Below are positions 6,044 through 63,960 of a stretch of 64,000 bases of DNA, one piece after another. Positions within the stretch are counted from its first letter, which is position 1; the number at the start of each line of letters is the position of its first letter. Under the pieces are notes generated by a model that saw only the letters and a program-made list of their open reading frames with translations, was not told where the DNA came from and searched no databases. Origin of the DNA: Nematostella vectensis (lineage: Eukaryota); contig NC_064047.1 in the NCBI RefSeq assembly GCF_932526225.1, positions 1,817,027 to 1,881,026 of the forward strand, in the 5' to 3' direction. The position numbers were made by a program, and so were the translations under genes.

Positions 6044-6414
6044 CTTGGGAATAGAAAGATAAGGGGCAACTTATAAATTACTCGTCACTTGTTAAATCGG
6101 TAAAATGTCACCAGTTTTACTTTCGGTAATTTGCGTAACAATATCTGATAATTTTTAACGGAAAACGCGAAAAATATTTCAAAATTGTAAAAGCAGTGTG
6201 TCTATTGGAAGTTTCTTTGAGGATGTGATGTGATAATTTAGAAAGGATGGCCTGTTAATAGATTCTTGTCTCTTGAGGTTTTCGTCGGTCCTCCCGAAAT
6301 TAACTGGTGACAATGCCGCCGCTTTAATTACTCGTCACTTTTAAACTACTCGTTGTAAATAACTCGTTACCTGTAAATGACTCGTCACTTGTAAACTACT
6401 CGTTGCTTGTTTAC

Positions 6415-6583
6415 CTGTAAAATCCGGATGGCCTGGTCAAGCACAGACTTCTGGTCAGTAAAGTAGTCACTACTTGGTAGCGCGAGTCTGCTGAAGTGCG
6501 CCTGGAACAGTAGGTTGGTCTTGGTGTGCGCACTGTCGAACGTGTGCGGGTTCACCTCCAAAGGCAGCTCTTTAGCAAGATCA
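6415..6583 (-). CDS. ASCC3: ASCC3 exon 31 (S DLAKELPLEVNPHTFDSAHTKTNLLFQAHFSRLALPSSDYFTDQKSVLDQAIRILQ)
   Basis: Second Sec63 unit. Acceptor ccgttcag| and donor CAG|GTAAAC. Confidence 0.8.
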
Positions 6584-8869: not shown

Positions 8870-9342
8870 CTGGAAAATGGTGTCGGTAGACAAATGATAG
8901 TAATGGTATTGGTGGACAAATGTTAGTGCTAGGTGCTACATCGGCATTGAAAGGTAAACTGTAAAATGATGTAGGTAGACAATAGCTAGAGTACCACCTA
9001 GACGTTAACATGGTCTGCTTGTACAACTCCAATGAACTAGCTCGACTAAATCATCATTTCCGACAATCATTACTTTTTAACCTTTATTCTACAGGGAATA
9101 GCTATTACTAATAGAAATGCTTGGGGGTGTGGCCAGGGGGACGGCTCAGGGGGAGCCCCCCCCCTTCCAGCAGGCAAAAATACAGTAAATCTATGATACA
9201 TTACTACATTACTTAAATACAGGAACAATGCATAATCTGGGCCTTTTTAGGCCACCTCCTGTAATAAATCCTGGCTACGCCCCTGATGGTTTATAACCGC
9301 AGGCTTCCCAACCACGTCATAAGCATGACAATTTAACCATAC

Positions 9343-10619: not shown

Positions 10620-11115
10620 CCTACTTCCTCTTCCTGCATGTCACGTCACGTGATAGTAACCTCCTTTTTTGGGCGGTCACGTCACACAGTACTTACCTCC
10701 TCTCCTCCATTTCCGCCAGGTGATGTATACCCTCTCTCCACCATTTGACGTCACGTGATGATTACCTTTTCTTCCGGTAAGTGATGTCACGTGATTTTTA
10801 CCTTCTCCCTCTGAAGGTGACGTCACGTGATGCTTACCTCTCCTTCCGGCATGAGACGTCACGTGATGCTTACCTCCTCCCTCTGAAGGTGACGCCACGT
10901 GATGCTTACCTCCTCTTCAGGCATGTGATTCTAAACTCTTCTTCAGGCATGAGACGTCACGTGATGCTTATCTTCACTTTCTTAATGTGACGTTACATGA
11001 TGCTCACCTCCTTTTCCGGTAAGTGGCGTCACGTGATTCCTACCTCTTCTTCCAGTATGCGGTGTCACGTGATTTTGACCTTCACCCTCTGCATGTGACG
11101 TCGCGTGATGCTCAC
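10620..11115. repeat. About 60-bp minisatellite (about 8 copies) whose unit is the ASCC3 exon-25 donor junction (minus strand GAGGAG|GTAAGCATCACGTGACGTC)
   Basis: Every unit carries an AG|GTAAGC consensus donor plus a CACGTG E-box and a TGACGTCA CRE-like palindrome. The array abuts the real donor at 11115/11116. Confidence 0.8.
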
Positions 11116-11379
11116 CTCCTCTTCAGGCATGTGCAGCCATTGCTTGGGGTCATCCTGGGCGGCCAGGAAGGCGATCAAGTCCAGGGCTGTTAGTCTGGTC
11201 TGTCTTCTGGACGAGACGAAGACGAGGGTGGGCTTGGTCGGAGAGTGAATCCGGATCGCCTCGAAAGTTGGCTTGTTCATAGTAGCCATACGAGGGCAGT
11301 AATGCTTGCCGGGAAATCCTGTGATGTGAACCTCAAGAGGAACAGGGCGAACTGAAGGTCGGAAGTTGAACATACCAGC
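11116..11379 (-). CDS. ASCC3: ASCC3 exon 25 ([88 protein letters not shown])
   Basis: The [16 protein letters not shown] motif is conserved. Acceptor tccccaag| and donor GAG|GTGAGC. Confidence 0.9.
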
Positions 11380-12419: not shown

Positions 12420-12746
12420 GTCGACCACAAAGATAACTAGTATGAGATCTGCCAGCTCTGACTGACGCTCAGCCCAACAAACCAGTTGCATACTAGTTTT
12501 ACAGGTTAAAGAATCTACCTCTTTAATAATAACCAGATTGACTTGTTTGACATAGCTAAGCGTCTGCCAGCTCTGACTGATCCCAGCCCGACAAGCCAGT
12601 TGCATACTAGTTTTACATGTTTAAATATCTACTTCGTCAATAGTGAGCAGATTGAATTGTTTGACATAGCTACGCGTCTGCCAGCTCTGACTGATCCCAG
12701 CCCGACAAACAAATTGCATACTAGTTTTACAGTTTTAAGTATCTAC
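12420..12746. repeat. 120-bp tandem pseudo-copies (about 3 copies) of the 3' end of ASCC3 exon 23 plus its donor (…SWQTRSYVKQVNLLIIDE|GTAGAT)
   Basis: The minus-strand copies read SWQTLSYVKQFNLLTIDE|GTAGAT and ...IIKE|GTAGAT. Confidence 0.8.
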
Positions 12747-12900
12747 CTCGTCAATAATAAGCAGATTGACTTGTTTGACGTAGCTACGCGTCTGCCAGCT
12801 TCGACTGATGCCGTCCCACTTCTCCGGTGTCGTCACGATGAGGTCAGCCTGGCTAATGGAACGCGAGTCTGGTGTGACGTCACCCGTCAGTTCTATCACC
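12747..12900 (-). CDS. ASCC3: ASCC3 exon 23 ([52 protein letters not shown])
   Basis: Acceptor ccgttgccag| and donor GAG|GTAGAT. The downstream intron carries 2-3 pseudo-copies of this exon's 3' end plus donor. Confidence 0.85.
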
Positions 12901-14399: not shown

Positions 14400-15154
14400 T
14401 TGCGTGATTTCAAGTTGTGTCGCGTGATGTCACGGCCGTCTTACGTGGCCATACGTATCTGTACGAGGATTGGGTGCGTGGCTAGCTTTGTTGCGTGACG
14501 CAATGGCGTTGTATTGCGTTATTCCAAGCAATGTTGCGTGACGTCACAATGCTGTATTACGCAACCATATGTTGCGTGACGCCATGGTGCTGTATTGCGT
14601 GATTTCAATTAATGTTGCGTGACGTCACGGTATAGTATGGAATCACGGGTGGCCCTCTCAACCCTGAATTTCACTTGTTGGACGTATGTGAGCTTACTAG
14701 AAGCTCGTGTTCCTCAGTTCCAAGATGGGTCATTATTAATACATTAGGATTTTAAATGTGAAGCGCTTAGAACATGGTTGATATAAGCGCTACATAAATG
14801 TCAATTGAATTAATTAATTTAATTATTACGCGACCATACAGTGCCTGTATCTGTACGGGGTTATGTTGCGTGACGCCATGGTGCTGTATTGCGATGATTT
14901 TTAGTAGTGTTGCGTGACGTCACGGTGCAGTATTGCGTGACAATACAGTACCTGCATCTGCACGGGGTAGTGTGCGTGACGCCACGGTGTAATGTTTGAA
15001 TTCAAGTAGTGTTGTGTGACGTCACGGTGTAGTATTACGTGACAATACAGTACCTGTATCTGCACGGGGTTGTGTTGCGTGACCTAATGTTGCAGCATCG
15101 CGTGATTTCAAGTAGCATTGCGTGACATCACGGTGTAGTATTACGTGACCATAC
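14400..15154. repeat. 60/120-bp minisatellite (about 6 copies) built from the ASCC3 exon-20 donor junction (minus strand AACCCCGTGCAGATACAG|GTACTGTATTGTCACG, i.e. …NPVQTQ|GT)
   Basis: Each unit repeats the last 18 nt of the exon plus a GTA donor and a TGACGTCA motif. The array abuts the real donor at 15154/15155. Confidence 0.8.
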
Positions 15155-15421
15155 CTGTGTCTGCACAGGGTTGAAGTGCGTAAACTTGTAGAGCAGCTCG
15201 TAGCTGACATTGTGTAGCGCGCTGATGGGCAAGGGCTGTAGGTCTAGTAGCTCAGTGTGCGGTGGATGTCTCTCCGGGAGGATCAAGTGCTGGAAGGAGA
15301 TAGCGCACACAGTCTCCGCCCCAAGCCACCGGTCAGACACTGCGTGTACGTAGTACTGAGGGGGGAGGGGTTCGAAGATAGGGATGGTGAATACGAGACT
15401 CTGGGGCTCCTCTGATAAGAC
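15155..15421 (-). CDS. ASCC3: ASCC3 exon 20 ([89 protein letters not shown])
   Basis: Near-identical to ASCC3 residues around SDRWLGAE...[14 protein letters not shown]. Acceptor ccttgtcag| and donor CAG|GTATGG. Confidence 0.9.
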
Positions 15422-16387: not shown

Positions 16388-17560
16388 CTGAGATCATAAT
16401 GAAAGGGTGTATAATGTGAGATACGAACACATAATCAAGGGGTGTATAATGTGAGATACGAACACATAATCAAGGGGTGTATAATGTGAGATACGAACAC
16501 ATAATCAAGGGGTGTATAATGTGAGATACGAACACATAATCAAGGGGTGTATAATGTGAGATACGAACACATAATCAAGGGGTGTATAGTGTGAGATACG
16601 AACACATAATCAAGGGGTGTATAATGTGAGATACGAACACATAATCAAGGGGTGTATAGTGTGAGATACGAACACATAATCAAGGGGTGTATAGTGTGAG
16701 ATACGAACACATAATCAAGGGGTGTATGATGTGAGATACGAACACATAATCAAGGGGTGTATAATGTGAGATACGAACACATAATCAAGGGGTGTATAAT
16801 GTGAGATACGAACACATAATCAAGGGGTGTATAGTGTGAGATACGAACACATAATCAAGGGGTGTATAATGTGAGATACGAACACATAATCAAGGGGTGT
16901 ATAGTGTGAGATACGAACACATACTCAAGGAGTGTATAGTGTGAGATACGAACACATAATCAAGGGGTGTATGATGTGAGATACGAACACATAATCAAGG
17001 GGTGTATAATGTGAGATACGAACACATAATCAAGGGGTGTATAATGTGAGACACGAACACATAATCAAGGGGTGTATAGTGTGAGATACGAACACATAAT
17101 CAAGGGGTGTATAATGTGAGATACGAACACATAATCAAGGGGTGTATAGTGTGAGATACGAACACATAATCAAGGGGTGTATAATGTGAGATACGAACAC
17201 ATAATCAAGGGGTGTATAGTGTGAGATACGAACACATAATCAAGGGGTGTATAGTGTGAGATACGAACACATAATCAAGGGGTGTATGATGTGAGATACG
17301 AACACATAATCAAGGGGTGTATAATGTGAGACACGAACACATAATCAAGGGGTGTATAATGTGAGATACGAACACATAATCAAGGGGTGTATGATGTGAG
17401 ATACGAACACATAATCAAGGGGTGTATAATGTGAGATACGAACCCAAAATTAAAGGTTGTATAATGTGAGATACGAACACATAATCAAGGGGTGTAGAGT
17501 GTGAGATACGAACACATGATCAGGGATGTATGGTGTGAGATAGGAACTTAAGATCAGGGG
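16388..17560. repeat. 40-bp minisatellite (GGGGTGTATAATGTGAGATACGAACACATAATCAA), about 29 copies, filling about 85% of the intron between exons 19 and 18
   Basis: Direct reading. The unit resembles the last 20 nt of that intron (cattatgatctcag). Confidence 0.85.
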
Positions 17561-20339: not shown

Positions 20340-20882
20340 CGCCGTGTTAGTGAAGTTGGCTGGTCCTTACCTCGATAGTATCGAACTCGATGTAGAAGTG
20401 ACTGGTCGTGTTATCAAGGTCGGCTGGTCCTTACCTCAATAGTATCGAACTCGATGTAGAAGTTTCTGGTCGTGTTATCGAGGTCGGCTGATCCTTACCT
20501 CAATAGTATTGAACTCGATGTAGAAGTTACTAGTTGTGTTATCAAGGTCGGCTGGTCCTAACCTTAATAGTATCGAACTCGATGTAGAAATTTCTGTTTG
20601 TGTTATCAAGGTCGGCTGGTCCTTACCTCAATAGTATCGAACTCGATGTAGAAGTGACTGGTCGTGTTATCGAGGTCGGCTGGTCCTTACCTCAATAGTA
20701 TCGAACTCGATGTAGAAGTAACTAGTCGTGCTATCGAGGTCAGCTGGTCCTTACCTCAATAGTATCGAACTCGATGTAGAAGTTACTAGTTGTGTTATCG
20801 AGGTCGGCTGGTTTTTACCTCATTGGTATCGTACTCGATATAGAAGTGACTGCTCGTGGTCTCAAGGTCGCCTGGTCCTTAC
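20340..20882. repeat. 60-bp minisatellite (about 9 copies) built from the ASCC3 exon-15 donor junction (minus strand …TTCTACATCGAGTTCGATACTATTGAG|GTAAGGACCAGC)
   Basis: Units read FYIEFDTIE|GTAAGG, against the real exon end FYIKYDTIE|GTAAGG. Confidence 0.85.
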
Positions 20883-21047
20883 CTCTATAGTATCGTACTT
20901 GATATAGAAGTGACTGGCCGTTCTACCGAGGTCGGTGGCTGACAAGTAGCCTTGCTCCTCTGCAAATCTGATCATACGGGCCTTGTCCAGTTTACGAGCA
21001 GTCGACACTATCAGCTGCCGTCTGTAATTCTCGAGTGTCGGGTCATC
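20883..21047 (-). CDS. ASCC3: ASCC3 exon 15 (DDPTLENYRRQLIVSTARKLDKARMIRFAEEQGYLSATDLGRTASHFYIKYDTIE)
   Basis: Acceptor ttttcaag| and donor GAG|GTAAGG. The real donor is the first in a ladder of about 10 tandem donor copies. Confidence 0.75.
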
Positions 21048-21818: not shown

Positions 21819-21938
21819 CTCTTTATCCTTGTGAGGAATTCCATAGACTAGAGGGTTCTTGATCATTCGTATGTACAGGTAAGAGTAGCTCAGCCATTCC
21901 ACCGCTTCGTTTACATTAGTAACAGTACCAAGACAAAT
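21819..21938 (-). CDS. ASCC3: ASCC3 exon 14 ([40 protein letters not shown])
   Basis: Start of the winged-helix/Sec63 region. Acceptor cttgtag| and a weak donor GAG|GTTCGT. Phase 0 on both sides. Confidence 0.6.
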
Positions 21939-22400
21939 CTACAAGACAATGTATTACTTGAATGCGGCCTAGAAAGTCAAGTCTGAAAAAAAGGGGTGAT
22001 CATGGGATGTATAATAATCGTGTAGGGTCGAATAGTTATTCCACCGCTTCGTTTACATTAGTAACAGTACCAAGACAAATCTACAAGACAATGTATTAGT
22101 TGAATGCGGCCTAGAAAGTCAAGTCTAAAAAAAAAGGTTGATCATGGGATGTATACTAATCGTGTAGGGTCGAATAGTTATTCCACCGCTTCGTTTACAT
22201 TAGTAACAGTACCAAGACAAATCTACAAGACAATGTATTAGTTGAATGCGGCCTAGAAAGTCAAGTCTGAAAAAGGGGTGATCATGGGATGTATACTAAT
22301 CGTGTAGGGTCGAATAGTTATTCCACCGCTTCGTTTACATCAGTAACAGTACCAAGACAAATCTACAAGACAATGTATTATTAGTTTGGTGCGGCCCAAA
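21939..22400. repeat. 120-bp tandem repeat (about 4 copies) built from the ASCC3 exon-14 acceptor junction (minus strand ttgtcttgtag|ATTTGTCTTGGTACTGTTACTAATGTAAACGAAGCGGTGGAA)
   Basis: Each unit contains the acceptor plus the first about 45 nt of the exon. Confidence 0.85.
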
Positions 22401-27642: not shown

Positions 27643-27777
27643 CTGCTTGAGGGCGCTACCGTAGTCTGGGGCCTGCTCTGCCCTGAAGAGCATGGAGTCC
27701 CCCTGATTGGAAGCCATCTCTCTTAACGTCATGGCCGTCCGCACGGTGGCATTTCTAGCATGAACAAACACCATGAC
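27643..27777 (-). CDS. ASCC3: ASCC3 exon 11 (VMVFVHARNATVRTAMTLREMASNQGDSMLFRAEQAPDYGSALKQ)
   Basis: The VMVFVHARNATVRTA motif is conserved. Acceptor tctcttcag| and donor CAG|GTACTG. Confidence 0.85.
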
Positions 27778-27960
27778 CTGAAGAGACAAATAAATAATTA
27801 TAGAACGAACAAACACCATGACCTGAAGAGACAAATAATTCTAGCATGAACAAACACCCTGACCTGAAGAGACAAATAAATAATTATAGAACGAACAAAC
27901 ACCATGACCTGAAGAGACAAATAAATAATTATAGAACGAACAAACACAAACCTGAAAAGA
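27778..27960. repeat. 45-bp tandem repeat (about 4 copies) duplicating the ASCC3 exon-11 acceptor (minus strand ctataattatttatttgtctcttcag|GTCATGGTGTTTGTTC)
   Basis: Direct reading. Each unit has a full polypyrimidine-AG acceptor plus the first 16 exon nt. Confidence 0.85.
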
Positions 27961-28125
27961 TAAATGACTACGTAGATACCATTTTCGTAATCATCACTAC
28001 AATAATTATCATTATGATCACCGTCATCAAAATCGTTTTCTTGTATTCAGATCAGTATGTTTCCGGTATTTTCAGAACAATCACCGTCATGATGATCATC
28101 ATCGACGTGATCATGAACATTACCG

Positions 28126-28994: not shown

Positions 28995-29243
28995 CTGGTA
29001 GCCCTTCTCCACGTTTTCTGTGACCTTCTCATAGCAGATCTTATCCATCTCGTGCGCTTGCTGGAACGGGTTCAGCCCTTTCACCCCGATGAACGTCTGT
29101 CCGAGGGGGACTGGGCGAAAACGTGAGTCGAAGGCGAAAAGACCTTTGTACGGGTCCACCCTTAGGAAGTGTGCGACGTCCAGATAGTTAGGGAGAGTAG
29201 CAGACAGTCCGACAATGCGAATCATGGACTGCGAGGATAACAC
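28995..29243 (-). CDS. ASCC3: ASCC3 exon 10 (VLSSQSMIRIVGLSATLPNYLDVAHFLRVDPYKGLFAFDSRFRPVPLGQTFIGVKGLNPFQQAHEMDKICYEKVTENVEKGYQ)
   Basis: Helicase motif III (SAT) is present. Acceptor attgtag| and donor CAG|GTATAG. Confidence 0.85.
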
Positions 29244-30400
29244 CTACAATACATATTAAGATAAATTCCAACAGATGGTTAGGAAGAGTGGCAGATAGGC
29301 CGACAATGCAAATCCTAGACTGTGAGGACAAAACCTACAATACATATTAAGATAAATTCCAACAGACGGTTAGGGAGAGTGGCAGATAGGCCGACAATGC
29401 AAATCCTAGACTGTGAGGACAAAACCTACAATACATATTAAGATAAATTCCAACAGATGGTTAGGGAGAGTGGCAGATAGGCCGACAATGCAAATCCTAG
29501 ACTGTGAGGACAAAACCTACAATACATATTAAGATAAATTCCAACAGATGGTTAGGGAGAGTGGCAGATAGGCCGACAATGCAAATCCTAGACTGTGAGG
29601 ACAAAACCTACAATACATATTAAGATAAATTCCAACAGATGGTTAGGGAGAGTGGCAGATAGGCCGACAATGCAAATCCTAGACTGTGAGGACAAAACCT
29701 ACAATACATATTAAGATAAATTCCAACAGATGGTTAGGGAGAGTGGCAGATAGGCCGACAATGCAAATCCTAGACTGTGAGGACAAAACCTACAATACAT
29801 ATTAAGATAAATTCCAACAGATGGTTAGGGACAGTGGCAGATAGGCCGACAATGCAAATCCTAGACTGTGAGGACAAAACCTACAATACATATTAAGATA
29901 AATTCCAACAGATGGTTAGGGAGAGTGGCAGATAGGCCGACAATGCAAATCCTAGACTGTGAGGACAAAACCTACAATACATATTAAGATAAATTCCAAC
30001 AGATGGTTAGGGAGAGTGGCAGATAGGCCGACAATGCAAATCCTAGACTGTGAGGACAAAACCTACAATACATATTAAGATAAATTCCAACAGATGGTTA
30101 GGGAGAGTGGCAGATAGGCCGACAATGCAAATCCTAGACTGTGAGGACAAAACCTACAATACATATTAAGATAAATTCCAACAGATGGTTAGGGAGAGTG
30201 GCAGATAGGCCGACAATGCAAATCCTAGACTGTGAGGACAAAACCTACAATACATATTAAGATAAATTCCAACAGATGGTTAGGGACAGTGGCAGATAGG
30301 CCGACAATGCAAATCCTAGACTGTGAGGACAAAACCTACAATACATATTAAGATAAATTCCAACAGATGGTTAGGGAGAGTGGCAGATGGCCGACAAGGC
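29244..30400. repeat. 90-bp minisatellite (about 13 copies) built from the ASCC3 exon-10 acceptor junction (minus strand tatgtattgtag|GTTTTGTCCTCACAGTCTAGGATTTGCATTGTCGGCCTATCTGCCACTCTCCCTAACCATCTG)
   Basis: Unit = the last about 27 nt of the intron including the acceptor, plus about 63 nt homologous to the exon start (real: GTGTTATCCTCGCAGTCCATGATTCGCATTGTCGGACTGTCTGCTACTCTCCCTAACTATCTG). Confidence 0.85.
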
Positions 30401-30599
30401 AAATATTAAACATCCTCTGTCTTAGCCATTTTATCATCCTAGCAAAGCACCACTTTTATCGGCTAAATAAGGGGAATTAATGTCATATTTTAGATTGAAT
30501 TTGTTAAATAAAGAATCAAACTTTGTTTTTAGATGGCCTCTAGATGTCTTACTAACACATGAGAGATTAGCGAACAGCAAAACAAATAATGCAACGTCC

Positions 30600-30790
30600 T
30601 TGCTTAAAGCCTCAGGGATACTCGGGTTTTGCTCGGAAATGCCGATGATTTCCTGTTGTAACGTCCTCGCTATAAAAAGCCTCAGGGCTTTTCGGGATTT
30701 ACTCGGAAATGCCGATGATTACCTGTCGTAACGTCCTCGCTAAAAAGTCTCGGGACTAATCAGGGTTTACTCGGAAATGGCGATGATTAC
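30600..30790. repeat. 60-bp tandem copies (about 3 copies) of the ASCC3 exon-9 donor junction (minus strand GCGAGGACATTACGACAG|GTAATCATCGCCATTTCCGAG)
   Basis: Direct reading. One copy has its donor mutated to GAAATC. Confidence 0.8.
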
Positions 30791-30955
30791 CTGTCGTAAT
30801 GTCCTCGCCACAAGGCACTCAATGACGGAGCCACGGTCATCATGCAGCAAATGAACCTCGTCAATGATGAGTAGCTTGACAAGCTGAGCCAGCGCTACAT
30901 CTCCAGTGGACTTACGTGTGACAACATCCCACTTTTCCGGGGTAGTGACAAGCAT
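30791..30955 (-). CDS. ASCC3: ASCC3 exon 9, containing the DEVH box ([55 protein letters not shown])
   Basis: The DEVH motif and a TTPEKWD motif are present. Acceptor tgtcgcag| and donor CAG|GTAATC. Confidence 0.85.
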
Positions 30956-59047: not shown

Positions 59048-61339
59048 GTAAGAGAAGTGGATTATAGGGAGCTTGAAGCTCGAATCTGGGTTCCACTCTT
59101 TGTGCCTGGGGCTATATTGTGTATGTTTGTGGTGATTTTTATTTCGTACATCCAGTACATAGAATGAAGTGATGGCAGAAAGTGTCGAAAATGTGGGGAT
59201 GAACATGGTGGGTGGGTGCTAGTGAAAAAAAGTCAGGATTTCCATGATAGCGACAGTGGATGGGGAAAACTGAAACGTTTGTAATAATTAGGGTAGTGAG
59301 AATATAAAGAATATGCTTCGTATGTACGTGACGATCTAACTTATCTAGAAACATCTCTGAAATTGTTTATAAACCTCTAGATCAAGAATTAATTAAATGC
59401 GTGTTTTGTTTTGTAATAGCACTAAAAAGAAAAATAAACAATTTTGTGAAGATCATCAATTTCAAGCCATAGTGTGATGGACAAGAACTTAAAAGCAACA
59501 CATCATCTTTTGTTTCAAAGCAGACGTAAAAATGACTATTTCTCTACTTCGGCTTATTTTAGACCTTTTGATACGTTTGGTAAGCTGGGGTCTGATAGAC
59601 ACACCTTTAGAAATGTTCCCGAAGAGAAGACAGAAATGTGATATGCCATTTGCCTTTAAAAGACCTATCATTCGTTTTGAAACATGAGGTGGGGAGGAGG
59701 GCTGATTAACACTCTTTAATAAACAAAAACAGGTATCAAGCAGATGCTTGTCAATGTACACTTACTCATTCCCTGTTTGGGTTGAGAGCGTAAAATTCAA
59801 TTAAAACCAGGAAGCTTAGCCCAAGTGTGCCCCCTTATGGTAATGTCAGCAGTCAAGATAGGGGCTACTAGGTTACGCTCGGACAGACAAAACAAAAAGA
59901 ATGGAGCAATTAATAAGTTTTTAACTCTTTAACCGATAAAAGGTCAGAGGTGAGCTCGAGCTTGTAGAGATATTTATTTTATTTTGAGGCATCGAGGGAG
60001 TAGTACGGATGATGGTCTACACTGTGTGGAAACCCCAAAAACAGTGAAGATAAAGAAAAGAAGAAAAAAAGCCGGGAATAGTTAAATGCAAACCGTTGAA
60101 AAATATCAATTGGAATAAAGCCGCTCAAAAAAAAATCTAGCTTAGAATATAACTCGATTCACAGACCCATTTGCCCCTTAAGCTTTTTTTTTTGGCAATA
60201 TAGTAATTCCTAGAAATGCCATATTTGCCATATTCGCGTGACCATTGAAGGGAGTTGGATATAGCAGCAACTGGATCATAAACAATCCAAGTGTCACAGC
60301 CAGGACAGAGCAGAAAAACTTGCACGAAACACGATTAAGCATTCTATTAGTGTCTTACATTCAGTTTTGCATAAATTCATTCTGATATTGCATAAATGAT
60401 CCACGATATGAAGTCCAACGGCTTGCTTAGTAACAGCCTCTGGCATAGCCTCTGAGAGAACAATCTTGTCTAGTTCTTCGTTACGTCATTTCCTGTTTAC
60501 GATTGCGTAGGCGTGCCCAGTTCTCCTCCGGTCTGCCCCAAGGATGATGGTCGACGAAACGGCTTGAAGACATTTGGAAGTCATCAAGCCTCTGTTAGCG
60601 GTTGAATATCCTAAACGGCACTAAAATCCTTCCTCTGCTCAATACCTTTTCTTTCGCTGTGTGTATCATTTCTTATTTGTTCAAACTACAAGCGCATCTC
60701 AATGTTCCTTTTTTAAAGTTTATTGGATTACGTCATCGTGTGGTAAAAAATTTGCCTTTCAGATATTCGAAACCTGGCTTTTAATGTTTTAAAAACATGT
60801 TTGATGAGTCCAAGAAGAAATGGTTAAATGTTAACTCAAAAGAAGAGCTACGTCTTTTTTCGTGACGTGCTGACCCTATTAGTAAGCATTGTTGTATGTA
60901 TATGCGCCATTTGGAAAGAGTTAGTGATGCCGGCATATTTACAGCCTTTGAAAGGCCCCGTTAGGGGCTTAACCAGACAAGCTCATCTATCATATAGCGA
61001 TTTGTACGTCTCATTACATGAATTACGCTCATTTAGTTTAAACCTTTCGGCGTCGGCCTTTTGGTCAGTTTAAACTACCGAAGACGGTTATTACAGCAAT
61101 TAGTAACCCAAAAAGCCGCAGATTGGAGCAGATAGTTCCACATGGATGTATTTTGTTTCCTTTTTTGAGAGTGATTACACTCTAATAAATAGCATATTTC
61201 TAGTTACAGGGGCGTTTAAGGGTCAATGGGTAAGAGGTAGTGAAAGGCAGTGTGGGGGGACTTCATGTAAGATGGTTTGACCATTTAGTCGTTCGGTATT
61301 TGAGCAAATGTGTGATAATTCTGTTAATGCTTGAGGGTG

Positions 61340-62132
61340 CATTTTTGCCGCCATTTGTTCTGACACCTCTGTTACCATGTTTGCAAGCGCATGTTTCCCG
61401 CCATTTGTTCTGACACCGCTGTTTTCTGTTTGCAGGCGCATGTTACCTGCCATTTGTTCTTGTACCGCTGTTTTCATGTTTGCAGGCTCATGTTTCCCGC
61501 TATTTGTTATGAAACCGCTGTTTTCATGTTTGCAAGCGCATGTTTCCCACCTTTGTTCTGACACCGCTGTTTTCATGTTTGCAGGCGCATGTTTTCCTCC
61601 ATATGTTTGATACCGCTGTTATCATGTTTGCAGGCGCATGTTTCCCGCCATTTGTTCTGATACCACTGTTTTCATTTTTGCAAGCGCAAGTTTCCCAAAA
61701 TTTGTTCTTATACCGCTGTTATCATGTTTGCAGGCGCATGTTTGCTGCCATTTGTTCTGACACCGCTGTTTTCAAGTTTGCAGGCGCATGTTTCCCGCCT
61801 TTGTTCTGACACCACTGTTATCATGTTTGCAGGCGCATGTTTCCCGCTATTTGTTCTGACACCGCTGTTTTCATGTTTGCAGGCGCATGTTTTCCACCAT
61901 TTGTTATGACACCGCTGTTTTCATGTTTGCAAGCGCATGTTTCCCGCTATTTGTTCTGACACCGCTGTTTTCATGTTTGCAGGCGCATGTTTTCCACCAT
62001 TTGTTCTGACACCACTGTTATCATGTTTGCAGGCGCATGTTTCCCGCTATTTGTTCTGACACCGCTGTTTTCATGTTTGCAGGCGCATGTTTTCCACCAT
62101 TTGTTATGACACCGCTGTTATCATGTTTGCAG
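61340..62132. repeat. 50-bp minisatellite (about 15 copies) built from the TBX20 exon-3 acceptor junction (unit GCGCATGTTTCCCGCCATTTGTTCTGACACCGCTGTTTTCATGTTTGCAG)
   Basis: Each unit ends in the acceptor tcatgtttgcag| and restarts with the first 19 nt of exon 3 (GCGCATGTTTCCCGCCATT). The last unit is the real acceptor and exon. Confidence 0.9.
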
Positions 62133-62249
62133 GCGCATGTTTCCCGCCATTCGCGTGAAGGTGTCTGGTTTGGATCCCCATGCGCACTACATACTAGTGA
62201 TGGATGTAATACCGCTGGACGGCAAACGCTACAGATACGCATATCATAG
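62133..62249 (+). CDS. TBX20: TBX20 exon 3 ([39 protein letters not shown]-)
   Basis: RMFP...VSGLDP...[12 protein letters not shown] is the TBX20 signature. Acceptor tgtttgcag| and donor AG|GTAAGT. Confidence 0.9.
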
Positions 62250-62279
62250 GTAAGTTCCTAAGGGCAGTCGTCACACTGC

Positions 62280-62525
62280 AGGGCCGTAGCCAGCAAAAGC
62301 CACGTGAGGCATTCGCCTCGGTAAAATTTTGATGTTTAGTGTTTCACAATTGAAAAGTATGAGATAAAATACCTGCTTTTGTTGGATTTATCATCCAGTG
62401 GGTAGCTTTGCCTCGGTAAAATTTTGATGTTTAGTGTTTCACAATTGAAAAGTATGAGATAAAGTACCTGCTTTTGTTGGATTTATCATCCAGTGGGTAG
62501 CTTTGCCTCGGTAAAATTTTTATTC
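62280..62525. repeat. 120-bp tandem duplication (2 copies: gcctcggtaaaattttgatgtttagtgtttcacaattgaaaagtatgagataaa…) just 3' of TBX20 exon 3
   Basis: Direct reading. Confidence 0.8.
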
Positions 62526-62653
62526 TGGCTACAGGCCTGCTCTGCGATGCATGTTCTGCACGGAAGCAGCTTCTTGGCACAAAATGAATAATTTTACTTG
62601 GTGGTTTCCGTGGTGTTCGGCATTACTTAAATCCACCTCTTGGTTTATGCCAG

Positions 62654-62810
62654 TTCCAAGTGGGTGGTAGCGGGGAATGCAGACGCTCCTATGCCCGGGC
62701 GGGTCTATATTCACCCGGACTCTCCGGCTCTTGGGGAGGAATGGATGAGACAGATCGTGTCATTCGATAAAGTCAAGTTGACCAATAACGAGCTGGACCA
62801 ACAAGGACAT
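62654..62810 (+). CDS. TBX20: TBX20 exon 4 ([54 protein letters not shown])
   Basis: [18 protein letters not shown] matches the TBX20 sequence [18 protein letters not shown]. Acceptor tgccag| and donor CAT|GTGAGT. Confidence 0.9.
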
Positions 62811-62869
62811 GTGAGTGTTCATTGATAGCTAGGCATGATGTCCGCATGACAATATATGCTGATGCTGAT

Positions 62870-63600
62870 GCTGCTGCTGCTGCTGCTGATAATGGTGGTG
62901 GTGGTGATGGTGGTGGTGGTGGTGGTGGTGGTGGTGGTGGTGGTGGTGGTGGTGGTGGTGGTGGTGGTGGTGGTGGTGGTGGTGGTGGTGGTGGTGGTGG
63001 TGGCGATGGCGATGGCGATGGCGATGGCGATGGCGATGGCGATGGCGATGGCGATGGCGATGGCGATGGCGATGGCGATGGCGATGGCGATGGCGATGGC
63101 GATGGCGATGGCGATGGCGATGGCGATGGCGATGGCGATGGCGATGGCGATGGCGATGGCGATGGCGATGGCGATGGCGATGGCGATGGCGATGGCGATG
63201 GCGATGGCGATGGCGATGGCGATGGCGATGGCGATGGCGATGGCGATGGCGATGGCGATGGCGATGGCGATGGCGATGGCGATGGCGATGGCGATGGCGA
63301 TGGCGATGGCGATGGCGATGGCGATGGCGATGGCGATGGCGATGGCGATGGCGATGGCGATGGCGGTGGCGGTGGCGATGGCGATGGCGATGGCGATGGC
63401 GATGGCGATGGCGATGGCGATGGCGATGGCGATGGCGATGGCGATGGCGATGGCGATGGCGATGGCGATGGCGATGGCGATGGCGATGGCGATGGCGATG
63501 GCGATGGCGATGGCGATGGCGATGGTGATTGTGATGGTGATGGTGATGGTGATGGTGATGGTGGTCATGTTGTTGATGATGATGATAATGATGATGATGA
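62870..63600. repeat. Compound microsatellite (GCT)n-(GGT)n-(GGCGAT)n-(GGTGAT)n-(GAT)n, about 730 bp, in TBX20 intron 4
   Basis: Direct reading. All four long six-frame ORFs here are artefacts. Confidence 0.95.
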
Positions 63601-63622
63601 TATGCTTTTTCTTTGCAAATAG

Positions 63623-63787
63623 ATAATCCTCCACTCAATGCACAAGTACCAGCCACGGATTCACATCATCAGAAAGAAAGACACGAGCGAAGCCAGTATT
63701 GACATCGATCGACCTTGCTCGGAGAGGAAAACCTTTACATTTTCCGAAACCATCTTTACCACCGTCACCGCCTACCAAAATCAACAG
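63623..63787 (+). CDS. TBX20: TBX20 exon 5 ([55 protein letters not shown]); the gene continues beyond the window
   Basis: The MHKYQPR.HII.KKD and TAVTAYQNQ motifs are present. Acceptor caaatag| and donor CAG|GTAACT. Confidence 0.9.
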
Positions 63788-63960
63788 GTAACTTTGACAA
63801 CATCTACCATATAAAAAATCTGCACCATCGCCAAATATCTAATATGTATTTATCACCTTCACCGCCTATCAGAATTAACAGGTAACCATGACAATATAGT
63901 CACAGAAATAAACTTTACCACTGTCACCGCCTATCAAAACAAAAGTGGCAACATTGTTGT
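63788..63960. repeat. Degenerate tandem copies of the TBX20 exon-5 3' end plus donor (real ACCACCGTCACCGCCTACCAAAATCAACAG|GTAACT; copies CACCTTCACCGCCTATCAGAATTAACAG|GTAACC and ACCACTGTCACCGCCTATCAAAACAAAAGTGG)
   Basis: Direct reading. The array extends to the window edge. Confidence 0.7.

Follow-up and report, generated by a model that had tools for sequence, protein, structure and literature searches.

The window analyzed here, a 64,000-nucleotide stretch of Nematostella vectensis DNA, includes two genes on opposite strands, and tandem arrays make up 21% of it. The minus strand bears a complete ASCC3 orthologue: human ASCC3 (8ALZ) matches it with E=1.6e-175 versus 1e-128 for Brr2, its orthologues are named ASCC3, and the 2007 gene model P0325 is 97% identical to the predicted protein, with 28 exons mapped in the window. 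In the 2007 annotation, the neighbors of ASCC3 are a BLOC1S3-like gene on its upstream side and a DGCR6-like gene on its downstream side. On the plus strand lies a T-box gene, separated from ASCC3 by a cluster of large C/A-rich arrays (47079-51585) that includes units of 28 bp x 16 and 69 bp x 10.5, as well as a 44-bp array of about 38 copies with a 418-bp higher-order period.

Five exons of the T-box gene were found by tblastn using a TBX20 probe, and their boundaries were then set from the sequence. Exon 1 (57722-57848) is followed by exon 2 (58861-59047), which ends with ITKAG(R) and the donor AAG|GTAAGA, the 5' splice site that has to be joined to one of the 16 acceptors described below; by exon 3 (62133-62249, 117 nt, from tblastn and splice modelling), whose donor TAG|GTAAGT scores 6.7 of 7.2; by exon 4 (62654-62810); and by exon 5 (63623-63787). 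Joining exon 2 (...GGA AG) to G CGC ATG TTT yields the KAGR| junction exactly as it stands in two RefSeq proteins, XP_048578081.1 and XP_032219494.2, to which the spliced product is 100% identical and which RefSeq names 'T-box transcription factor TBX15' isoforms X2 and X1, respectively. The TBX20 label initially attached to the gene was thus mistaken. Its T-box domain shares 82% identity with a coral 'TBX15-like' protein and 71-73% with vertebrate TBX18/TBX15, but only 62-64% with vertebrate and cnidarian TBX20. Cnidarians also own separate TBX20 genes, the best vertebrate matches of which are TBX20. On these domain comparisons, the gene is assigned to the TBX15/18/22 class.

Two other introns of this gene are repetitive or displaced. 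Intron 4 (62811-63622) is almost entirely microsatellite, with (TGC)n, (TGG)37 and (TGGCGA)93 tracts, and is represented in a 2007 draft assembly by a much shorter (ATGGTG)40-type tract. Intron 3 (62250-62653) contains a 95-bp repeat (62315-62520) that spans no junction and is present in 2.2 copies here versus 6.2 in the 2007 assembly (locus L001, 8222-8809). The boundaries of intron 3 read ...TACAGATACGCATATCATAG|gt ... ag|TTCCAAG in Nematostella and ...CGATACAG|gt ... ag|ATATGCGTATCACAGTTC in the coral Montipora capricornis (locus L002, 7766/9492). The intron sits 15 nt further downstream in Nematostella with an equal phase, an apparent intron slide between two anthozoans.

Intron 2 (59048-62132, 3085 nt, phase 2) is where the main feature is found. 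Its last 794 nt belong to a tandem array, called by TRF at 61339-62151 with a period of 50, 16.3 copies and 86% matches, and this was the only array called over the exon 3 junction. Unit dissection and unit alignment identify it as a 50-bp minisatellite spanning the junction, the kind of repeat for which Canestro et al. 2002 coined the term 'mirage', as cited in PMC3087553 and PMC3902484. Cutting the array at the acceptor core produces 16 units, each 48-51 nt long, and leaves the first 19 nt of the exon as a final partial unit. Every unit ends with an acceptor-like motif, and the sixteenth of these motifs is the real acceptor (AG at 62131-62132, junction 62132|62133). The earlier note had described 15 upstream acceptor copies between 61340 and 62132, with the real exon as the last unit, and was accurate in all three respects.

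Each unit corresponds to the last 31 nt of intron 2 joined to the first 19 nt of exon 3. In array order, the 19-nt exon part GCGCATGTTTCCCGCCATT, which encodes R-M-F-P-A-I, comes first and is followed by the 31-nt intron part TGTTCTGACACCGCTGTTTTCATGTTTGCAG, a complete 3' splice module composed of a branch motif, a pyrimidine tract and CAG|G. Units diverge by about 14%; the acceptor core is among the best conserved positions, the exon-derived positions are the most variable, and A and B unit types alternate at the 3' end of the array. When the 64-kb window was searched with a 35-nt probe allowing up to 3 mismatches, nine matches were obtained, all inside the array, versus none expected from shuffled sequences.

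A second view of the locus was provided by the 2007 draft (GCA_000209225.1, scaffold DS469525.1), where the T-box region was reached through the model EDO46665.1. Over the flanking sequence this assembly is about 98% identical to the window, with about 2% of aligned positions differing. The earlier note had named absence of the array from other assemblies, together with signs of mis-assembly, as grounds for abandoning its reading; the array is present in the draft, with 13 units (13.3 copies) versus 16 in the window. The two alleles have their end units in common: numbering the units W00-W15 in the window and V00-V12 in the draft, W00-W02 equal V00-V02 and W15 equals V12 exactly, while the interior is rearranged and the 2007 allele contains a duplicated V01-V02 block. 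Shared ends around a rearranged interior are the classic structure of minisatellite alleles. Together, the alternation of A and B units and the duplication of the V01-V02 block point to a turnover of the array that is still going on.

These observations bear directly on whether the array was mis-assembled or artificially expanded. Tandem repeats are classic sites of assembly error, and the 2007 draft itself shows a suspicious 40-bp duplication in exon 3 adjoining the array. However, two independent assemblies or haplotypes, about 2% different, both contain the array with identical end units and interiors of a different length, and seven ASCC3 junction arrays that we probed are likewise reproduced in the 2007 assembly. 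Since the array occurs in both assemblies with a polymorphic interior, an artefact is essentially refuted and we regard it as very improbable.

The 40-bp duplication itself occurs in exon 3 of the draft allele (L001 8019-8099, corresponding to about 62149-62189 of the window), in two copies reading ATTCGCGTGAAGGTGTCTGGTTTGGA[TCCC/CCTC]CATGCGCACT. It begins exactly at the end of the 50-bp array and would shift the reading frame. As the first copy is the same as in the window allele and the second departs from it at 2 nt, the duplication looks like an artefact of haplotype merging, although it may alternatively be a real null allele.

The Montipora capricornis orthologue gives the direction of the change. 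It keeps the intron at KAGR|RMFP, with an acceptor ...tttcgtttcag| and an exon start GCGCATGTTTCCGGCCATTCG, and no tandem array was found anywhere in that gene. Of the 19 positions in the exon part of the Nematostella unit, 18 are identical in the coral exon. Being present in an orthologue that lacks the array, this part of the unit is ancestral coding sequence; the junction was thus the source of the copies, and the array is an acquisition of the Nematostella lineage. The same comparison weighs against a dispersed satellite or transposon-borne repeat that would resemble the exon start by chance. Such an origin might be considered in a repeat-rich genome, where arrays occupy a fifth of the window, yet the unit is confined within the window to the T-box array, its 19-nt exon part is T-box sequence common to an array-less coral, and ten other arrays described below each copy a different local junction of their own. 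Its probability is practically negligible.

The 15 upstream motifs (61387-62082) were characterized as potential decoy acceptors by splitting at the acceptor core, by scoring, by searching for branch-site motifs and by modelling premature stops. Eleven are canonical and read TTTGCAG|G, with AGs ending at 61435, 61485, 61584, 61633, 61733, 61783, 61832, 61882, 61982, 62032 and 62082. The other four, ending at 61387, 61536, 61684 and 61933, carry a GCAAG variant and are weak because the AG has moved by 1 nt. The scoring matrix was built from 24 other real acceptors of the window, doubtful junctions being excluded (the ASCC3 model is imperfect at junctions 11-14). On this scale the real T-box acceptor lies near the median of real sites (6.6 versus 6.4 bits). 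The canonical decoys score 5.7-8.6 bits, 8 of the 11 lying above the real site, compared to 1.0-2.9 bits for the four CAAG variants and an average of -3.7 bits for background AGs in intron 2. As judged by this matrix, the canonical decoys have an ordinary, not exceptional, predicted strength, and the real site has no intrinsic advantage over them. The initial description of 15 strong acceptors consequently holds for the 11 sites with TTTGCAG|G and full signals but not for the four GCAAG sites.

Upstream signals do not favor the real site either. Most units have a branch-site-like CTGAC 22-24 nt before the AG, typically at -23, and pyrimidine tracts of 13-15 out of 20, whereas the last unit has a slightly poorer ATGAC motif and a tract interrupted by A. 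The earlier suggestion that branch-point position discriminates among the copies therefore fails, since each unit carries a branch motif of its own and that of the real unit is the weaker one.

Use of a decoy would nonetheless be costly to the message. All 16 acceptors were modelled, and 62132 is the only one that keeps the T-box frame open and yields the RefSeq protein. The decoys would add 50, 100, 150, 199, 250, 300, 349, 399 nt and so on up to 745 nt, and in the splice model all 15 run into an in-frame stop within 8-74 codons; the additions that preserve the frame (150, 300 and 399 nt) are no exception. The disruption that the earlier note expected from most decoys extends to every one of them, but the added lengths are not strict multiples of 50 because the units vary from 48 to 51 nt. 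The array holds no donor-like GT: its best candidate reaches 3.0 out of 7.2, whereas real donors range from 4.7 to 6.7. It follows that no pseudo-exon can form inside the array, and that the first usable donor past every decoy is the true exon 3 donor. That 62132|62133 is the acceptor actually used is supported, at the level of gene models, by RefSeq and the 2007 annotation and by protein conservation; the protein database yielded no Nematostella entries derived from transcripts.

Several known arrangements also place competing acceptor AGs within one intron. NAGNAG tandem acceptors lie 3 nt apart and give in-frame isoforms; with a spacing of 48-51 nt and a premature stop after every decoy, the T-box array does not fit this type, and NAGNAG-type alternative acceptors were rejected. 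Recursive splice sites, or ratchet points, need AG|GT. The units read CAG|GCGCAT, so that no donor is regenerated at the AG, and with no GT in the array above 3.0 this possibility was rejected as well. A GC donor regenerated at CAG|GCGCAT was discarded on its weak donor match, as was a distant branch point followed by an AG-free zone, every unit containing an AG.

Decoy sites created by junction duplication could also be steps in a change of intron position, and the array might then represent a stage of intron sliding or gain of the sort modelled by Rogers and by Ebner. This has been proposed in the lancelet literature (PMC3087553), and sliding and gain by tandem duplication are documented in Drosophila (PMC2891723). 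The 15-nt displacement of intron 3 relative to coral also occurs in this very gene. At intron 2, however, there is no sign of decoy use or of a shift, KAGR|RMFP being conserved in coral, and every exon derived from a decoy contains stop codons. The scenario moreover describes a possible evolutionary fate of the array, not its present nature, and as an account of the latter we find it improbable.

Junction-spanning arrays are not limited to T-box exon 3. Unit-by-unit inspection identified them at no fewer than 11 of the 62 mapped junctions of the window, nine in ASCC3 and two in the T-box gene. The second T-box array is on the donor side of exon 5 (63755-63955, plus strand; from alignment and donor scores) and is also present in the 2007 allele: after the real donor at 63787|63788 (CAG|GTAAC), a second copy retains an intact CAG|GTAACC at 63881 and a third has decayed. 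In ASCC3, all on the minus strand, three arrays lie on the acceptor side. That of exon 7 (29181-30404) has a 91-bp unit and 12 decoys, each with ttgtag| followed by 63 nt of exon-like sequence; those of exon 8 (27753-27965, 45-bp unit) and exon 11 (21896-22380, 142-bp unit) have three decoys each. Six arrays lie on the donor side: exon 6 (30593-30808, 68-bp unit, 2 decoys); exon 12 (20343-20935, 64-bp unit), with 8 decoys of which the majority retain GAG|gtaagg intact; exon 16 (14824-15170, 102-bp unit), where two further copies of CCCTGTGCAGACACAG|gta read ccccgtgcagat(a/g)cag|gta; exon 19 (12448-12809, 114-bp unit, 2 decoys); exon 21 (10746-11133, 36/72-bp unit, about 5-7 decoys); and exon 26 (6329-6421), with an 18-bp unit containing TTTACAG|gtaacgag. 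The earlier claim that the phenomenon recurs in ASCC3, on the other strand, is therefore well founded, and extends to a donor-side case in the T-box gene itself.

For the junction peptides of ASCC3, confirmation comes from the 2007 model and from an alignment with Actinia ASCC3 that has almost no gaps. Each of the 11 arrays copies its own local junction. The real site is invariably the last copy in acceptor-side arrays and the first in donor-side ones, an order that is a geometric necessity when a junction is duplicated. All seven ASCC3 arrays that were probed (A6, A7, A8, A11, A12, A19 and A21) recur in the 2007 assembly, six with an equal copy number, and exon 7 with 13 copies here versus 8. 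In the exon 7 array, the 12 decoy copies are about 98% identical to each other and 88-89% identical to the real junction copy, from which we infer that the boundary unit escapes homogenization and that the expansion is recent. The ASCC3 gene of Actinia tenebrosa measures 18 kb versus 34 kb in Nematostella. It consists of 4% tandem repeats, and none of its nine short-period arrays spans a junction.

Two further repeats of ASCC3 stop short of a junction. Before exon 15, a 35-bp x 33 array with 95% matches (16395-17547, minus strand) ends 7 nt ahead of the acceptor. As it contains no AG in the orientation of the gene, it supplies branch and pyrimidine regions but no decoys, and forms in effect an AG-free zone of 1.15 kb. 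The other, a 26-bp x 2 duplication (8876-8927), stops 6 nt short of the exon 24 acceptor; it repeats the pyrimidine-tract region but not the AG, and is an intron-only duplication abutting a junction.

To what extent junctions are over-represented was estimated with a null model in which the founder unit of each array is placed uniformly and duplications wholly within exons are discarded. For ASCC3, the nine observed junction arrays compare with 2.8 expected using present-day collapsed introns (P = 0.0005), 4.4 using an Actinia-like intron content (P = 0.015) and 6.1 using very compact introns (P = 0.10). Junction arrays in ASCC3 thus show a modest excess of 1.5- to 3-fold that depends on the null and comes from one window, which may have been noticed because it is unusual. 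An excess of this kind could accommodate an origin biased towards junctions, or a degree of selective retention, neither of which a purely neutral account would explain.

One form of the first idea is that exon-intron junctions are preferred birthplaces of minisatellites in Nematostella, through a mutational bias at exon edges related to chromatin or to transcription and splicing, as opposed to junction arrays being simply what remains after duplications at random positions. We hold this as a tentative possibility and rather doubt it. Should it be true, mirage arrays would be general in minisatellite-rich animal genomes, cnidarians as well as lancelets, and would provide a steady supply of decoy splice sites and of turnover in intron position. 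As a corollary, correct splicing past 15 equal-strength decoys would show strict exon-centered choice of splice sites in a cnidarian. The general mechanism invoked in the earlier note is justified insofar as the phenomenon recurs; beyond ordinary tandem duplication, it is suggested only by the modest, null-dependent enrichment.

Another reading is that the decoys are functional, either regulating the gene by sending a fraction of transcripts, dependent on copy number, into unproductive splicing targeted for decay, or forming a landing pad that concentrates U2AF/SF1 near the real acceptor. In favor of such a role, 11 decoys keep full-strength signals in spite of about 14% divergence between units, with the acceptor core among the best conserved positions and exon-derived positions varying most; junction arrays are over-represented; and the number of units differs between alleles. 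Concerted evolution alone, however, can conserve the core. The coral orthologue does without the array and Actinia ASCC3 without junction arrays, and the mirages of lancelets are reported to yield no aberrant mRNAs (PMC3087553, PMC3902484). The presence of similar arrays at many junctions of a housekeeping helicase gene also fits a mutational by-product better than a regulation specific to one gene. Functional decoys are, in our assessment, unlikely.

The reading that we consider likely is that the T-box array is a mirage minisatellite tolerated as a neutral-like by-product, and that its last acceptor is chosen by exon context. A 50-bp segment composed of the 3' splice module and 19 nt of exon 3 would have been duplicated in tandem in the Nematostella lineage, then amplified and reshuffled through slippage or unequal exchange. 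The array would have no function of its own and would probably be a slightly costly by-product of a minisatellite-rich genome. Duplication of the junction leaves a single intact exon, the 15 upstream copies becoming intronic decoys; as only the last acceptor is contiguous with the remainder of the exon, it alone gives a functional mRNA. Since the real site has no intrinsic edge over the decoys, correct splicing must rely on information outside the repeat. Exon context is the most likely source of this information: the last acceptor would be picked through exon definition, thanks to an intact exon body and a strong GTAAGT donor 117 nt downstream. Transcripts spliced at a decoy all carry a premature stop, and nonsense-mediated decay would presumably eliminate them. 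Both exon definition and this decay pathway are presumed to operate in Nematostella as they do generally.

Such loci amount to a natural experiment on splice-site choice, with 16 near-identical acceptors of which only the last is right, mirrored by donor-side arrays in which only the first is right. A rule favoring the shortest intron would select the wrong site in 11 arrays out of 11, which argues for exon-centered recognition in an early-branching animal. With at least 11 of 62 junctions affected, mirage arrays may be a regular product of minisatellite-rich genomes, with a bearing on the origin of decoy splice sites, on the inflation of introns (as in the 34-kb ASCC3 gene of Nematostella compared to Actinia) and on models of intron sliding and gain. 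They are also traps for gene predictors and assemblers.

Compared with known systems, the closest parallels are the mirages of lancelets, described in troponin C and the globins BflGb6 and BflGb9 (PMC3087553), in PGBD5 (PMC3902484), and in Adh3 by Canestro et al. 2002, as cited in PMC3087553. They may lie on either exon side, and their units include AG or GT signals; the number of units depends on the haplotype, and splicing is left undisturbed (PMC3087553, PMC3902484). The BflGb6 mirage joins the 3' end of an intron to the 5' part of an exon, exactly as in the T-box exon 3 array, and its unit number varies by haplotype (6 vs 3, compared to 16 vs 13 here); boundary units escape homogenization in lancelet and Nematostella arrays alike. 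In its sequence, the T-box array has all the defining features of a mirage: minisatellite-sized units are repeated head to tail, each joins an intron end with its splice signal to adjoining exon sequence, the true junction lies in the last unit, which runs directly into the body of the exon, and unit number varies between haplotypes with stable boundary units. The two sets differ in that lancelet mirages belong to Cephalochordata and had their splicing checked by RT-PCR, whereas the arrays of Nematostella, a cnidarian, are known here from DNA and gene models, and in that the latter have more decoys (15 before T-box exon 3) and a very high density, at least 11 junctions in 64 kb.

A human counterpart is the 37-bp VNTR of F7 intron 7 (IVS7), whose first unit spans the exon 7-IVS7 boundary and whose pseudo-donors are functional yet normally silent (Borensztajn et al. 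2006, PMC1557585). As in the Nematostella arrays, this is a run of splice sites of identical sequence, and F7 uses the one that adjoins the exon. The VNTR is directly comparable to the donor-side arrays of T-box exon 5 and of ASCC3 exons 6, 12, 16, 19, 21 and 26, where the real site is likewise the most upstream at a donor boundary. The exon 3 array differs in this respect: in F7 a 5'-to-3' scanning picks the first donor, but the exon 3 array, being an acceptor-side one, needs its last site, so that a scanning rule of the F7 type cannot apply. Intron gain and sliding under the Rogers model in Drosophila likewise involve tandem duplication at or near junctions with extra splice sites; those cases (PMC2891723) end in a new or shifted intron that is in use, whereas the T-box array keeps the ancestral junction and its copies remain intronic. 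Given these precedents in lancelets (PMC3087553, PMC3902484) and in human F7 (PMC1557585), the novelty implied in the earlier note was overstated. In the literature searched, we found no description of junction-spanning arrays in Nematostella or other cnidarians. Our analysis extends mirage minisatellites from lancelets to cnidarians, a known kind of element in a new phylum and at a striking local density.
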